IMG/VR virus record: IMGVR_UViG_2706794669_000008
Length of the DNA: 4,821 nt
Origin: a virus
Taxonomy: Duplodnaviria > Heunggongvirae > Uroviricota > Caudoviricetes
Reading direction: 5' to 3' (one strand)
The translations under genes and the position numbers were made by a program. Each line of letters starts with the position of its first letter. Position 1 is the stretch's first letter. Positions 1 through 4,821 of this stretch are shown piece by piece. A model generated the notes under the pieces. That model was not told the DNA's origin. It ran no database searches and worked only from the letters and a program-made list of their open reading frames with translations.

Positions 1-83
1 AGGGACAGCTGATAGAAACAGAAGCCACTGGAGCACCTCAAAAACACCATCATACACTAAATCAGTAAGTTGGCAGCATCACC
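1..83 (-). mobile_element. IS1 terminal fragment (IRL end; element body lies left of the window)
   Basis: Positions 1..83 are the exact reverse complement of the first 83 nt of IS1 as I recall it (GGTGATGCTGCCAACTTACTGAT... at 61..83 reversed). The 23-bp terminal inverted repeat ends at 83 and the sequence becomes AT-rich, non-IS DNA from 84. Confidence 0.9.
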
Positions 84-190
84 GAAGTGGTAAAGAAGAT
101 AATAAAGAATAATATTTAGGGTTATAGGTCTTAGCCCATTTTAAATGGAAGGCAGACATGCAGCCATGCATACTTCGCATGGCAACATAA

Positions 191-532
191 TTATTTAGAC
201 AAACTATCTAATTTTTGCGTCGCTTTTTGTGTTAGGTCGCTGTAACTGATAAACCCTACGTTAGNNNNNNNNNNNNNNNNNNNNNNNNNNNNNNNNNNNN
301 NNNNNNNNNNNNNNNNNNNNNNNNNNNNNNNNNNNNNNNNNNNNNNNNNNNNNNNNNNNNNNNNNNNNNNNNNNNNNNNNNNNNNNNNNNNNNNNNNNNN
401 NNNNNNNNNNNNNNNNNNNNNNNNNNNNNNNNNNNNNNNNNNNNNNNNNNNNNNNNNNNNNNNNNNNNNNNNNNNNNNNNNNNNNNNNNNNNNNNNGCAA
501 ATAATCAGACACCGTTTTTCCATCAGTTTCAA
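191..532 (-). CDS. hypothetical protein, mostly N-masked; boundaries and frame continuity uncertain
   Basis: Readable N-terminus MKLMEKRCLIIC (TTG at 532, first ATG at 523) and C-terminus ...NVGFISYSDLTQKATQKLDSLSK with TAA stop at 191..193. The interior 265..496 is N. Same strand as, and about 60-70 nt downstream of, the 595..972 ORF. No convincing Shine-Dalgarno. Whether the two readable ends belong to one ORF cannot be verified. Confidence 0.3.
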   Translation of the reverse strand: MKLMEKRCLIICXXXXXXXXXXXXXXXXXXXXXXXXXXXXXXXXXXXXXXXXXXXXXXXXXXXXXXXXXXXXXXXXXXXXXXXXXXXXXXNVGFISYSDLTQKATQKLDSLSK

Positions 533-594
533 GAAGAATTACTAGATCTCTTACTTCACCACTGACTTGAGTGCATCCTTAGTAGTAATGTTAA

Positions 595-972
595 TCATTT
601 TTTCCCTCCAAATACGATGCCCTCTACGTCTTTGGAAGCTTTTTGTGATGACCACTCCTCTGAATCAGGTGATTTAATTAAAAATATTGTATCTCCATCA
701 AAAATCGTATTTGTTCCGTAAAAATTCACATTTGATAGATCACCACCAAAAACCCTCTGCCCACTCGAGGTAATTGCCTCACCTAATTTAGTAAAATTAC
801 CAGCAATAGATGATTTTCTTTTTCCACTTCTATTCAAAGTGGCTTTAATTACACCACCACCATCCTTAGAGTTAAATAATTGAATGTCCACTCCAGCAGT
901 TGGTTGTATATATTTTGAAAGCTCTTTCTTGAACTTGTTAATATATTTATCTTTGTTTTCTTTGTTGGTCAT
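595..972 (-). CDS. hypothetical protein, 125 aa, Lys/Gly/Ser-rich, no recognisable domain
   Basis: Uninterrupted 375-nt ORF in roughly 30-35% GC DNA, where stop codons are frequent, so a chance ORF is unlikely. Single ATG at 972, TGA stop at 595..597. No signal peptide or hydrophobic segment, no Cys or His. Weak ribosome-binding site. Confidence 0.55.
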   Translation of the reverse strand: MTNKENKDKYINKFKKELSKYIQPTAGVDIQLFNSKDGGGVIKATLNRSGKRKSSIAGNFTKLGEAITSSGQRVFGGDLSNVNFYGTNTIFDGDTIFLIKSPDSEEWSSQKASKDVEGIVFGGKK

Positions 973-1006
973 TGGTTAGATCCATAGTTCTGGCTGTGAT
1001 TAGGTG

Positions 1007-1012
1007 AAAGTA
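1007..1012 (-). promoter_or_regulatory. candidate sigma70 -10 hexamer (TATACT) for the 595..972 gene
   Basis: Minus-strand TATACT lies about 35 nt upstream of the ATG at 972, with a TG dinucleotide immediately 5' of it. No good -35 match. Judged by eye only. Confidence 0.2.
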
Positions 1013-1125
1013 TACAAGGTTTTTAAAGCGAAGATCACTGTTTTGGCTTCAAGATAGTTTTGATTTATCGTAATCAATCCGCCATAATCCTCTCATCGGA
1101 GCCTGAACAACTCCGGTGACTTCTG

Positions 1126-1149
1126 CGCATTTAAGGGGACTTAAATGCG
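1126..1149 (+). promoter_or_regulatory. perfect 10-bp stem / GGGA tetraloop hairpin overlapping the RBS and start codon of the ylcH-like ORF
   Basis: CGCATTTAAG (1126..1135), GGGA loop (1136..1139), CTTAAATGCG (1140..1149). The 3' arm contains the ATG at 1145..1147 and the loop contains the GGGGA Shine-Dalgarno-like sequence. No U-tract follows, so it is not an intrinsic terminator. Confidence 0.4.
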
Positions 1150-1240
1150 ACCACAATCTGAACTCATCACCTTGTCACAGATGCAGAAATGCACCTGCGA
1201 TTTTCTGCATTCTGCGGTTTCCGTTAGGGAGGCCGTATGA
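1145..1240 (+). CDS. ylcH: small ORF (31 aa, MRPQSELITLSQMQKCTCDFLHSAVSVREAV), ylcH-like position immediately upstream of ybcN
   Basis: ATG at 1145 preceded by AAGGGGA with 5-nt spacing. TGA stop at 1238..1240 overlaps the ybcN ATG (ATGA), the same coupling pattern as the downstream genes. Size and position match the DLP12 small gene ylcH; sequence identity is unverified. Confidence 0.4.
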   Translation: MRPQSELITLSQMQKCTCDFLHSAVSVREAV

Positions 1241-1692
1241 CTCTGCCAGTAGACGGCATCAAACTCCATCGCGGTAACTTCGCGGCCATCGGCCAGCAGA
1301 TTCAGCCATTGCTGGATGCCGGGCAATGCTTACGCCTGCAGGTTAAGCCGTGGCGCGAGAAGCGCAGCCTGTCGCAGAACGCGCTCAGCCACATGTGGTA
1401 CACGGAGATCAGCGAATATCTCATCGCCCGCGGCAAGACCTTCGCTACGCCTGAGTGGGTCAAAGACGCGATGAAGCACACCTATCTCGGCTACGAAAGC
1501 AAAGACCGTGTAGATGTCGTGTCCGGCGAGGTCACCACCGTCCAATCCCTCCGCCATACGTCAGAGCTGGAAACCGGCGAGATGTACATCTTCCTGTGCA
1601 AAGTCGAAGCCTGGGCGATGAATATCGGCTGCCACCTGACAATTCCGCAGAGCTGTGAATACCAGCAGCTGCGCGATAAGCAGGAGGCGTAA
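1237..1692 (+). CDS. ybcN: NinB/Orf-family recombination protein (DLP12 YbcN-like), 151 aa
   Basis: Full-length ORF with GGGAGG Shine-Dalgarno 5 nt upstream of the ATG. Protein is near-identical to my recollection of E. coli YbcN and shares the RSLSQN... motif with lambda NinB/Orf. Confidence 0.9.
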   Translation: MTLPVDGIKLHRGNFAAIGQQIQPLLDAGQCLRLQVKPWREKRSLSQNALSHMWYTEISEYLIARGKTFATPEWVKDAMKHTYLGYESKDRVDVVSGEVTTVQSLRHTSELETGEMYIFLCKVEAWAMNIGCHLTIPQSCEYQQLRDKQEA

Positions 1693-1862
1693 TGGCTACA
1701 CCGCTTATTCGTGTCATGAACGGGCACATCTACAGAGTATCAAATCGTCGTAAGCGTAAGCCTGAGCTGAAGCCATCCGAAATACCAACACTGCTCGGAT
1801 ATACCGCTAGCCTGGTTGATAAAAAATGGTTGCGACTGGCAGCAAGGAGGAATCATGGCTGA
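1692..1862 (+). CDS. ninE: NinE-family protein, 56 aa ([56 protein letters not shown])
   Basis: Hand-translated; it falls below the supplied ORF track. ATG overlaps the ybcN stop (TAATG at 1690..1694) and the TGA at 1860..1862 overlaps the ybcO start. Basic small protein at the conserved ninE position. Confidence 0.75.
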   Translation: MATPLIRVMNGHIYRVSNRRKRKPELKPSEIPTLLGYTASLVDKKWLRLAARRNHG

Positions 1863-2145
1863 TTTGAGAAAAGCAGCGCGTGGTCGGGAATGCCAGGTAA
1901 GAATCCCTGGCGTATGTAATGGCAATCCTGAAACGTCAGTACTGGCACATATCCGGCTGGCTGGATTGTGCGGTACCGGTATCAAACCGCCAGACCTGAT
2001 TGCCACCATTGCATGTTCTGCCTGTCACGACGAAATCGACCGCCGCACATATTTTGTCGATGCTGAGTATGCAAAAGAATGCGCGCTGGAAGGTATGGCG
2101 AGAACGCAGGTTATCTGGCTGAAAGAGGGGGTTATTAAGGCGTGA
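1855..2145 (+). CDS. ybcO: YbcO-family protein (DUF1364, putative nuclease; four Cys residues), 96 aa
   Basis: ATG at 1855 with AAGGAGG at 1844..1850. Sequence [23 protein letters not shown]... matches my recollection of DLP12 YbcO. The track ORF starting at 1816 is an upstream in-frame extension without an RBS. Confidence 0.85.
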
Positions 2146-2459
2146 ATACCTACAGCATCACATTACCCTGGCCTCCGAGCAATAACCGCTATTACCGCCA
2201 TAATCGCGGGCGCACACACATCAGCGCAGAAGGGCAGNNNNNNNNNNNNNNNNNNNNNNNNNNNNNNNNNNNNNNNNNNNNNNNNNNNNNNNNNNNNNNN
2301 NNNNNNNNNNNNNNNNNNNNNNNNNNNNNNNNNNNNNNNNNNNNNNNNNNNNNNNNNNNNNNNNNNNNNNNNNNNNNNNNNNNNNNNNNNNNNNNNNNNN
2401 NNNNNNNNNNNNNNNNNNNNNNNNNNNNNNNNACCATCACCGAAATGGGGAATGAATGA
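2142..2459 (+). CDS. rusA: RusA Holliday-junction resolvase (interior masked by N at 2238..2432)
   Basis: N-terminus [32 protein letters not shown] and C-terminus TITEMGNE match RusA. GTG start overlaps the ybcO stop (GTGA). The readable ORF is 105 aa, shorter than the roughly 120 aa I recall, so the masked length may not be the true length. Confidence 0.85.
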
Positions 2460-2596
2460 TGTTTGAGTTTTATATGGCAGAACTTCTTCGCCACCGCTGG
2501 GGGCATCTGCGCTTATATCGTTTCCCCGGTTCTGTTTTGACCGATTACCGAATACTGAAGAATTACGCCAAAACCCTGACAGGAGCAGGAGTATGA
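2456..2596 (+). CDS. ylcG: small protein YlcG-like, 46 aa ([46 protein letters not shown])
   Basis: Hand-translated. ATG at 2456 overlaps the rusA TGA stop (ATGA); own TGA stop at 2594..2596. Conserved position between rusA and Q in DLP12-type prophages. Confidence 0.6.
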   Translation: MMFEFYMAELLRHRWGHLRLYRFPGSVLTDYRILKNYAKTLTGAGV

Positions 2597-2681
2597 AGTC
2601 AGAGATAACAATCAACTAATACTGTTTTGTTGATTTTTGCTTGTAATTGGCGTTCTGGTCTGATTTTTGTGGAGTAAGTTG

Positions 2682-3065
2682 ATGCGTGATATTCAGATGG
2701 TTCTTGAGCGTTGGGGAGCGTGGGCGGCTAATAATCATGAAGATGTGACCTGGTCGTCCATTGCCGCCGGTTTTAAGGGATTAATTACTTCAAAAGTAAA
2801 ATCTCGCCCGCAATGTTGTGACGATGACGCGATGATTATTTGCGGGTGCATGGCCCGTCTGAAAAAGAACAACAGCGATTTGCACGATTTATTAGTAGAT
2901 TATTATGTAGTCGGTATGACATTCATGTCACTGGCAGGTAAGCATTGCTGCTCTGATGGTTATATCGGGAAAAGGTTACAGAAGGCTGAGGGCATAATTG
3001 AAGGGATGTTAATGGCATTAGATATCCGGTTAGAGATGGATATCGTTGTTAATAACTCTAATTAA
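2682..3065 (+). CDS. quuD: late-gene antitermination protein Q (QuuD-like), 127 aa
   Basis: ATG at 2682 with GGAG at 2671..2674. Sequence [22 protein letters not shown]...[18 protein letters not shown]... matches my recollection of DLP12 QuuD, including the Cys-rich motif. The track start at 2667 is a TTG extension. TAA stop at 3063..3065. Confidence 0.85.
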
Positions 3066-3080
3066 TATGCCAATTGTTTA

Positions 3081-3117
3081 CTAAAAATTATTAAAAATGG
3101 GGCGTTGCAACGCCCCC
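3081..3117 (-). terminator. intrinsic terminator for leftward transcripts (nmpC and IpeX)
   Basis: Perfect 18-nt GC-rich palindrome GGGGCGTTGCAACGCCCC at 3099..3116. On the minus strand it is followed by ATTTTTAATAATTTTT (complement of 3081..3098). On the plus strand it is followed by A-rich sequence, so it is unidirectional. Confidence 0.55.
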
Positions 3118-3257
3118 AAAAATAAAGGGTAATATATAACAGAAGGTTTATATAGTTAGAAGCAAGGTTGTGCTCCTAAAGGAAGTGGCTTGAGGGAGCC
3201 ACTTATATGTTGGGGAGGCAAAGCCTCCCGCAACATATCTTTTAGTAATCAAATTAG
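3090..3257 (-). ncRNA. ipeX: candidate IpeX-like sRNA region (3' end / downstream of nmpC)
   Basis: From memory, IpeX is a roughly 167-nt sRNA overlapping the 3' end and downstream region of nmpC in DLP12, on the same strand. Here the distance from the nmpC stop (3254) to the minus-strand terminator U-tract (about 3090) is about 165 nt and the region is highly structured. Ends are not mapped. Confidence 0.4.
3183..3243 (+). terminator. candidate terminator for rightward transcripts (tR'-like), tandem hairpins plus CTTTT
   Basis: Hairpin A: AAGTGGCT / AGCCACTT (3183..3204, loop TGAGGG). Hairpin B: ATATGTTGGGGAGGC-AAA-GCCTCCCGCAACATAT (3205..3238, one bulged G), followed by CTTTT at 3239..3243. 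Sits between Q and the convergent porin gene. Confidence 0.35.
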
Positions 3258-4336
3258 AACTGGTAAACCATACCTACAGCAACGATATCATCGGTAGCAA
3301 CGCCAGATGCTTTCGTGAAATCGCTCTTATCAATCAGGTTGATTTTGTAATCAACAAAAGTGGACATATTTTTGTTGAAGTAATAGGTTGCACCTACATC
3401 AATATATTCAACCAGGTCCTGATCACCCCACGCACCCAAGTCTTTTCCTTTAGATTGCAGGTAAGCAACGGACGGACGCAGACCGAAGTCGAACTGATAT
3501 TGTGCAACTACTTCGAAGTTTTGTGCTTTGTTGGCAATATGGTTATTACCAAAAACAGTCATGTTCTGGGTTTCAGAATAGGTGGTAGCCAGATAGATGT
3601 TGTTCGCATCATATTTCAGACCAGCTGCCCATACTTCAGCATTTTGACCAGATGCATTCAGGCTGTTGTTACCGTAGATAACCTGATTATTAGTGCGGTC
3701 AGATTTAGCATAGGTTGCACCTACACCGAATCCTTCATACTCATAAGTAGTGGAGAAACCGAAACCATCACCATTAGCTTCAGTTACGTCAGTGCGGTCA
3801 TTTTTACCCTGATACTGAGCAGCAAAGTTCAGACCATCAACCAGACCAAAGAAGTCGTTGTTACGATAAGTTGCAACACCAGTGGTGCGACCAGTCATGA
3901 ACACATCTGTTTGAGTCCAAGTGTCACCACCGAATTCTGGCAGGACGTCAGTCCACGCACCGATGTCGTATGCTACACCGTAGTTACGGCCGTAATCGAT
4001 GGAGCCGTAGTCACCGAATTTCAGGCCAGCGAAGGCAAGACGGGTTTTATCTTTGGAGGAACCTTGAGATTCAGCGCGGTTGCCTTTGAATTCATATTCC
4101 CACTGACCGAAACCAGTCAGTTGATCGTTGATTTGGGTTTCACCTTTGAAGCCAAGACGGGCATAAGTAGTATCACCATCATCTGCATCATTAGAGGAGA
4201 AGTAGTGCTTAGCATTAACTTTCCCGTACAGATCCAGCTTGTTACTGTCTTTATTATAAATTTCAGCTGCCTGAGCAGACATCGCCATCAGTACTGATGC
4301 AGCTACAGCAGAAATTGCCACTGTTAATTTTTTCAT
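3254..4336 (-). CDS. nmpC: outer-membrane general porin, NmpC/OmpD family, apparently intact (360 aa precursor)
   Basis: Start chosen at the ATG at 4336 ([23 protein letters not shown] signal peptide, then [16 protein letters not shown]...). The track start at 4396 adds 20 implausible residues. C-terminal ...VAVGMVYQF ends in the Phe typical of porins. Strong similarity along the whole length to my recollection of OmpC, NmpC and OmpD. TAA stop at 3254..3256. Confidence 0.92.
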
Positions 4337-4726
4337 CGTGAGCCCTTTTTTTGAACTATTATTAAAAAATGATGTCATTGCGCGATAAATATTCATCTAA
4401 TCAATGTGATTATTTCAAGATGTAAGTTTTGGTTTCTCGTTTGATTTGTGAAGTAGATCTCTATTTTTATCTGAACTTTTTTCTATCGAATCCTATTCAT
4501 GGCTCTTGACTGAATAAAAATAAATCTATTAGCCAATTTATATTAACGGCTGTTATTTATAAGTGCTCTATAATTTGAAGGTTCAATTTAAACCGGCTAA
4601 AAATAACACTGGAAATTATTTGTTGGTTATTTGTTGGGATTTGCTTATGTATTTGTAGTGGTGTTTTCAATACTCGGTAGCATTCTCGCAAATATCATTT
4701 AGTGGTTTACGTACGTAAAAAATTGG
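4337..4726 (-). promoter_or_regulatory. AT-rich upstream regulatory region of nmpC; promoter not mapped
   Basis: About 390 bp of AT-rich non-coding DNA between the porin start and the IS1 end, the size expected for a porin control region. Contains a perfect tandem repeat (4616..4637) and a 14-bp palindrome (4706..4719). No confident -35/-10 pair identified by eye. Confidence 0.4.
4616..4637. repeat. perfect tandem direct repeat, 2 x 11 bp (TTATTTGTTGG)
   Basis: 4616..4626 and 4627..4637 are identical and adjacent. Confidence 0.8.
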
Positions 4727-4821
4727 GGTAATGACTCCAACTTATTGATAGTGTTTTATGTTCAGATAATGCCCGATGACTTTGTCATGCAGCTCCACCG
4801 ATTTTGAGAACGACAGCGACT
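4727..4821 (-). mobile_element. IS1 terminal fragment (IRR end; element body lies right of the window)
   Basis: GGTAATGACTCCAACTTATTGAT... from 4727 to the window end is the reverse complement of the last roughly 95 nt of IS1 (3' end of insB plus IRR) as I recall it. Same orientation as the left copy. Confidence 0.9.

Follow-up and report, generated by a model that had tools for sequence, protein, structure and literature searches.

Two IS1 copies of probably separate origin bracket the nin-Q-porin segment of a defective DLP12-like prophage in Shigella sonnei

The 4,821-nucleotide stretch of DNA analysed here (the window) most probably derives from a defective DLP12-like lambdoid prophage on the Shigella sonnei chromosome; it would cover the nin-Q-porin part and lie between IS1 copies of separate origin, a reading to which we assign a probability of roughly 0.9. 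The identity and orientation of the IS1 ends, both junctions, the duplication at the right-hand copy, the sequence outside the pair in complete genomes and a split duplication in cscK were read directly from the sequences compared. The arrangement is ordinary, and the direct repeats around the segment would have arisen incidentally during the spread of IS1 that is typical of Shigella.

The window opens with the IRL end of a left IS1 (terminal 83 bp, 1..83, minus strand, with the remainder of the element off the window), the exact reverse complement of bases 1..83 of the annotated 768-bp IS1A of CV839-06 (L002, 6776..7543). It closes with the IRR end of a right IS1 (terminal 95 bp, 4727..4821, minus strand), the exact reverse complement of the final 95 bases of the same element. 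Both window ends are IS1 termini, including the ~23-bp inverted repeats, and in at least 5000 plasmid records the left 83-mer has 100% matches (E 1e-35) beneath IS1 transposase annotation, which excludes chance. Since both fragments are inverted relative to the canonical element, the two copies stand in direct orientation, and the segment that they bracket extends from 84 to 4726, with the junctions 83|84 and 4726|4727 set by alignment to uninterrupted prophages. A preliminary description, made from the sequence alone, had placed the window ends inside inverted IS1 copies (IRL at 1..83, IRR at 4727..4821) and had proposed that two direct copies bracket the segment; the full identity of both ends to IS1A and the resolution of separate copies in complete chromosomes bear out both statements.

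The window itself holds only 83 + 95 bp of IS1, and the completeness of the copies was judged from near-identical complete genomes. Four complete chromosomes (L003, L005, L008 and L012) contain window positions 1..4821 at 99.9–100%, one of which, L008, was tied through a paper to S. sonnei 4303 (GCA_002073875.2); both IS1 junctions are also present in L016. In the L008 assembly the IS1 copies are internally deleted or duplicated at both sites, which probably reflects assembly collapse and indicates that even a complete record can be unreliable here. From the near-identity of the sequences, we infer that the strain from which the window derives probably shares the outer flanks of these genomes.

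The right copy behaves as a simple insertion. In L005 it is complete (5434..6201, 768 bp), with an intact insA (91 aa) and an open insB frame, and in L003, L005 and L012 the same 8 bp, CCAATTTT, stands on both sides of it; the inner copy of this target-site duplication occupies 4719..4726 of the window (AAAATTGG, unstranded). The target site is single-copy in uninterrupted prophages, and the prophage is unbroken across the element, L005 5433 corresponding to position 10704 and L005 6202 to position 10711 of the ETEC1731 sequence (L001), with the holin, lysozyme, Rz and terminase genes directly beyond. A duplication of its own, together with prophage genes on its far side, indicates that this IS1 inserted in situ and that the lysis region was kept. 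The insertion would have entered the AT-rich spacer between the porin and holin genes, and the element now lies upstream of both, ~390 bp from the porin start and ~183 bp from essD. In its length, its insA and insB frames, its 8-bp duplication, its AT-rich site and its identical termini, the copy resembles the chromosomal IS1 of Shigella (IS1A/IS1B type, 768 bp). The earlier suggestion that IS1 had removed or displaced the replication and lysis regions holds for replication, which is no longer adjacent (gene P is cut and the flank is csc), but not for the lysis genes, which persist beyond the right IS1.

Against typical Shigella IS1 we found no substantive difference other than at the left copy, which lacks a duplication and, in complete genomes, contains a nested IS21-family element. 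In L005 this copy occupies 10910..13812, and an IS21-family element of 2131 bp, with an ATAT duplication, interrupts it at IS1 position 231. Of the two full 768-bp copies that the preliminary description had proposed to look for by extension, the right one is in L005 a single 768-bp element and the left one consists of parts of 231 and 541 bp. Gene P is cut by the left IS1 30 bp short of its end, where the inner flank reads ...CCACTTC. The outer flank in complete genomes reads CGCTTGCAG..., corresponding to cscK position 8001 of L014 (the cscK/cscB sucrose locus). No target duplication surrounds the left IS1, because the flanks derive from different loci; the departure from typical IS1 is accordingly that of a rearrangement junction. 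The 9-bp cscK target CGCTTGCAG recurs in inverted form, as CTGCAAGCG, beside a third, inverted IS1 (L005 17382..18149) 3.5 kb away, and the torI region lies between cscB and this third copy.

Two inverted IS1 copies bounding an inverted 3.5-kb csc-torI segment, with the 9-bp target present once at each copy in inverted orientation, are the features of IS1 duplicative inversion or adjacent deletion (intramolecular replicative transposition), which from sequence alone is indistinguishable from insertion into cscK followed by recombination of inverted IS1 copies. The left junction would thus be the product of either duplicative inversion or insertion and subsequent IS1 x IS1 recombination. Before that event, the left IS1 probably already linked the prophage with the torI (KplE1-type) region, so that one or more preceding deletions or rearrangements mediated by IS1 would have detached the replication, immunity and integrase arm. 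We infer this order and mechanism from the arrangement of the flanks, and both should be regarded as provisional. A simple deletion running from the prophage into an adjacent chromosomal site was set aside: the intact ETEC1731 prophage is located at icd, far from csc, and the outer flank here is csc/torI, so that no fewer than two events mediated by IS1 are required.

Inside the brackets, the content is as the preliminary description had outlined it: a low-GC module, nin genes, Q and a porin. The last 29–30 bp of the lambdoid replication gene P, including its stop codon, remain at 84..112 (plus strand), severed by the left IS1; the end of the P coding sequence at ETEC1731 position 6030 aligns with window position 112. 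GC content is ~0.30–0.37 across 84..1000, where two genes are encoded on the minus strand: a homologue of a 142-aa phage protein of unknown function (phrog_16940; 191..598), which is a pseudogene through a 1-bp deletion and is partly masked by a run of N at 265..496, and a 125-aa phage protein of unknown function (phrog_18061; 595..972). Neither low-GC gene has a match in Pfam, NCBIfam or PADLOC. On the plus strand then follow ybcN of the NinB/Orf family (1237..1692; phrog_72, E 8e-51), ninE (1692..1862; PF05322), ybcO (DUF1364; 1855..2145; PF07102), the Holliday-junction resolvase gene rusA (2142..2459; PF05866), the middle of which is occupied by a second run of N (2238..2432), ylcG (2456..2596) and the late antiterminator Q gene quuD (2682..3065; PF06530). 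The segment ends with an intact prophage general porin of 360 aa, OmpC/NmpC/OmpD-like, on the minus strand (3254..4336; NF007841, 518 bits).

The succession of P, a moron slot, ybcN/ninB, ninE, ybcO, rusA, ylcG, Q, a porin on the opposite strand and a holin is the DLP12-like order, as judged from the annotation of ETEC1731 and CV839-06, the Pfam families of neighbouring genes and matches to isolated phages. Genes, order and orientation agree with the ybcN-ninE-ybcO-rusA-ylcG-quuD-porin(nmpC/ompD-like)-essD module of DLP12 and other lambdoid prophages of E. coli, and phages such as PhiR68_2 match from ybcN to the porin at 90–95% identity. The difference from that module is the work of IS1, by which P/O are cut off at the left and essD is separated at the right. 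The porin ORF here is intact, whereas nmpC, the porin gene in E. coli K-12, is disrupted by IS5.

The interior of the segment was found in 46 of 5,426 complete E. coli genomes, at 92–99% identity to the prophages concerned and with breakpoints exactly at 83|84 and 4726|4727; in such uninterrupted relatives it sits within lambdoid (pro)phages, and none of the 46 carries IS1 at either junction. The IS1-bracketed segment was not found in 72,556 plasmids and 50,697 phages, which yielded only partial matches (ybcN to porin, ≤75% coverage) in phage context, and scans of GTDB species-representative genomes for the exact left and right junctions returned no match, which places the source outside that set. 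A scan of IMG/VR for both junctions recovered two contigs only, both with the L005 context. Across the E. coli genomes, plasmids, phages, GTDB representatives and IMG/VR, the IS1-bracketed unit was found at a single S. sonnei-type locus and nowhere else flanked by IS1.

One alternative is that the bracket, without ever having moved, is functional, with RecA-dependent IS1 x IS1 recombination or transposition from the outer ends deleting or mobilizing the porin, Q and nin genes appreciably in S. sonnei. With the IS21-family element taken out, the two repeats differ at 1 of 768 positions, and homologous IS copies have been described as mediating deletions and rearrangements in Shigella (PMC7373316). 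However, no deleted or mobilized derivative was observed, the IS21-family insertion divides the homology of the left copy into stretches of 231 and 541 bp, and the exact 125-aa protein occurs in 12,488 collection blocks, indicating that the segment is widely retained; on balance, we regard appreciable activity of this kind as unlikely. Unit mobilization or IS1-IS1 deletion is a generic structural possibility that goes beyond what the data show, and it is highly unlikely that the pair constitutes a latent composite transposon or deletion-prone cassette. Were it one, S. sonnei would occasionally lose or move the porin with Q/nin, for instance to pINV or to resistance plasmids, and an outer-membrane porin would vary from strain to strain.

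The preliminary description had also likened the arrangement to Tn9, and the likeness to Tn9 (IS1-cat-IS1) is real in so far as two direct IS1 copies, with both outer ends present and with an intact insA and open insB frame in the right copy, surround a few kilobases of passenger DNA. Other features speak against a Tn9-type unit that inserted or moved together with the porin and nin genes. An 8–9-bp duplication at the outer ends of the pair, which had been suggested as a check, is absent from L003, L005 and L012: the outer flanks, CGCTTGCAG in cscK and CCAATTTT in the prophage, are unrelated (in window orientation, CTGCAAGCG at the left and AAAATTGG at the right), and the right IS1 alone carries a duplication, with the same prophage continuing outside it. 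The passenger DNA retains its native prophage order, the searches described above yielded no second genomic or plasmid location, and the left copy is broken by the IS21-family element in complete genomes. Given this pattern of duplications, we rejected a history as a composite transposon and consider such unit transposition extremely improbable.

Equally hard to credit is an origin of the two fragments in misassembly, or in the opposite termini of a single IS1 carried by a circular or circularly permuted molecule, as the preliminary description had allowed. The window does resemble a short-read scaffold with both ends inside a high-copy repeat, and its runs of 232 and 195 N are shorter than the homologous stretches of 252 and 240 bp in relatives. 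In the megabase-scale L003, L005 and L012/L016 chromosomes, however, a separate IS1 copy stands at each end of the segment and the sequence outside differs, one copy being followed by the prophage lysis genes and the other by cscK; an independent 34.9-kb IMG/VR contig (L025) shows the same arrangement.

A prophage segment caught between separately acquired IS1 copies agrees with the IS1 content of the host. S. sonnei chromosomes carry a median of 286 IS insertions, IS1 makes up 42–59% of IS insertions across the three Shigella species studied, and high IS copy number together with IS-mediated rearrangements has been described for S. sonnei (Hawkey et al., PMC7373316). Arithmetic on these figures gives ~120–170 IS1 copies in ~4.9 Mb, at a mean spacing of 30–40 kb, so that close direct-repeat pairs are to be expected; assuming random placement, we calculate ~10 pairs this close per genome. 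Of the 12,488 collection blocks with the 125-aa protein, 6298 have it on a longest contig of only 2–5 kb, a length that breakage of short-read assemblies at the two IS1 copies would produce. Beyond annotation, the importance of the locus is slight. It cautions that a segment bracketed by two IS copies is not in itself evidence of a composite transposon where the genome holds well over 100 copies of that IS, and it illustrates three effects of IS1 expansion in Shigella: prophages are fragmented, short-read assemblies are interrupted at fixed places, and distant loci become joined.

Both ends of the window match IS1 exactly. Positions 1..83 are the reverse complement of bases 1..83 of the 768-bp IS1A annotated in E. 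coli CV839-06 (L002 6776..7543), and positions 4727..4821 (95 bases) that of the last 95 bases of the same element; at 100% identity (E 1e-35), the 83-mer matched at least 5000 plasmid records, annotated as IS1 transposase. Since both are inverted with respect to canonical IS1, the window opens in the IRL end of a first copy and closes in the IRR end of a second in the same orientation, and the directly oriented pair of the preliminary description was correctly placed. Aligned with uninterrupted prophages, the breakpoints fall exactly at 83|84 and 4726|4727.

The interior (84..4726) is DNA of a lambdoid, DLP12-like prophage; among 5,426 complete E. coli genomes, 46 match all of its unmasked length at 92–99% identity. 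According to the annotation of E. coli ETEC1731 and CV839-06, it comprises the final 30 bp of replication gene P, two genes of unknown function on the minus strand (142 and 125 aa) in a low-GC stretch (GC about 0.30–0.37), ybcN (NinB/Orf family, phrog_72), ninE, ybcO, rusA, ylcG, quuD and a minus-strand porin gene (360 aa; NF007841, OmpC subfamily), followed in intact prophages by essD (holin), lysozyme, Rz and terminase. A GC-rich hairpin (3099..3116; GGGGCGTTGCAACGCCCC) with A/T runs on either side stands between quuD and the porin gene, which converge, and looks like a bidirectional intrinsic terminator.

The low-GC module (191..972, minus strand) lies between P and ybcN, on the opposite strand. 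Its 142-aa protein (phrog_16940, with hydrophobic stretches) and 125-aa protein (phrog_18061) had no match in Pfam, NCBIfam or PADLOC. The 142-aa gene has lost 1 bp (GGATGGCAC to GGATGCAC) in the window and in the S. sonnei-type loci, and its frame stops after 15 codons. In CV839-06, the IS1A (L002 6776..7543) interrupts the 125-aa gene, flanked by a 9-bp duplication, TTCTATTCA, corresponding to window positions of about 827..836; this insertion is independent of the window's IS1 copies, so IS1 seems to have targeted the AT-rich module repeatedly.

IS1 stood at neither junction in any of the 5,426 complete E. coli genomes, and in E. coli prophages that contain the sites these are empty. An exact look-up with the 125-aa protein yielded four chromosome-scale loci holding window 1..4821 at 99.9–100%: L003 (CP104423), L005 (CP049179; 100%, in the opposite orientation), L008 (CP029794; assembly GCA_002073875.2, published as Shigella sonnei 4303) and L012. 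Among the loci compared, both junction 30-mers occur only in these four and in L016, drawn from the same record as L005. In IMG/VR the junctions turned up in two contigs, where the surroundings are those of L005, and neither the left nor the right junction was found in GTDB species representatives. Plasmids and isolated phages, the latter lambdoid, match the segment only partially, from ybcN to the porin (≤75% coverage).

In L005, the right IS1 is a full 768-bp element (5434..6201) that differs from the CV839-06 IS1A at four positions, with insA intact (91 aa) and the insB frame open; its transposase is probably functional. It sits upstream of both neighbouring genes, about 390 bp from the porin start and about 183 bp from essD. 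The sequence CCAATTTT, single-copy in uninterrupted prophages, stands on both of its flanks, and the prophage resumes beyond it without loss (L005 5433 and 6202 equal ETEC1731 [L001] 10704 and 10711); the right IS1 thus arose by simple insertion in situ, duplicating an 8-bp target. Downstream follow the holin, lysozyme, Rz, a KilA-N protein, Nu1 and the large terminase subunit, contradicting the earlier suggestion that the lysis region had been removed. In L003 (5433..6201) the right IS1 measures 769 bp and is called as one 232-aa InsA-InsB fusion ORF, owing either to a sequencing error in a homopolymer or to a transposase allele with fused frames.

In L003, L005 and L012 the left IS1 is made up of bases 1..231, a 2131-bp IS21-family element and bases 228..768. 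The nested element (L005 11141..13271, at IS1 position 231) encodes rve and IstB, ends in TGTCAG...TTGACA and is flanked by a 4-bp ATAT duplication; with it taken out, the left and right IS1 differ at one position. L008 is without the IS21-family element, and its IS1 copies are internally deleted or duplicated (5738..6201 and 10911..11732), probably through repeat collapse in the assembly.

The inner flank of the left IS1 is the P 3' end (...CCACTTC); the outer flank, starting with CGCTTGCAG, is position 8001 of the csc locus of E. coli E2865, with the cscK end 62 bp on, then cscB, and no duplication links the two flanks. The partner 9-mer CTGCAAGCG and the upstream part of cscK, inverted, adjoin a third, inverted IS1 (L005 17382..18149), identical to the right IS1. 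The sucrose-utilisation gene cscK is split (L005 13813..18158): two inverted IS1 copies, each with one occurrence of the 9-bp target next to it, bound an inverted cscK'-cscB-torI segment, where the torI region is the DNA from cscB to the third IS1. The order reads prophage, IRL[IS1]IRR, target 9-mer, inverted segment, IRR[IS1]IRL, inverted target 9-mer, rest of cscK.

IS1 duplicative inversion, an intramolecular replicative transposition, would produce this layout, as would insertion into cscK and then recombination of IS1 copies in inverted orientation; the choice of mechanism is one we infer. Under either, the P 3' end and the torI region were already connected by this IS1 before the csc event. 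The P and torI flanks of that prior junction likewise show no duplication and the intact ETEC1731 prophage is located at icd, so one or more prior events mediated by IS1, whether rearrangement or deletion, had detached the replication-immunity-integrase arm.

The interpretation in the preliminary description was partly supported. We took a duplication at the unit's outer ends, or the unit in more than one context, as marks of a Tn9-like history. Unlike Tn9, the pair here has no duplication at the outer ends of the IS1-segment-IS1 unit, and no second context appeared in the 5,426 E. coli genomes, plasmids, phages or IMG/VR. Such a history was rejected on this duplication pattern; the right IS1 also bears a duplication of its own, made in situ, and the passenger genes stand in native prophage order. 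Two outer IS1 ends are present, and mobilisation or RecA-dependent deletion of the bracketed segment is possible in principle; the data examined support neither.

Both window ends lie inside a high-copy repeat, and the N runs at 265..496 (232 N) and 2238..2432 (195 N) correspond to 252 and 240 bp in relatives, so the window has the look of a short-read scaffold with IS1 at its borders. The two runs resemble scaffold gaps whose size was estimated, not faithful masks, and the first shifts the frame of the interrupted gene. For the exact 125-aa protein, the longest contig is only 2–5 kb in 6298 of 12488 collection blocks, consistent with short-read breakage at IS1. That the bracket itself is an artefact was rejected on megabase-scale chromosome records with two copies in different outer flanks.

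The background expectation for such IS1 pairs is high. The S. sonnei chromosome carries a median of 286 IS insertions, and IS1 makes up 42–59% of IS across the three Shigella species studied (Hawkey et al., PMC7373316); from these figures we derive about 120–170 IS1 copies in S. sonnei at a mean spacing of 30–40 kb. By our own arithmetic, random placement would leave about 13% of neighbouring IS1 pairs ≤4.6 kb apart, half of them direct, or on the order of ten close direct pairs per genome. In the 20-kb locus L005 alone there are three IS1 copies, one IS21-family element, IS3-family elements and an IS4. The IS1 bracket is an ordinary, already documented outcome of IS1 expansion in Shigella sonnei.
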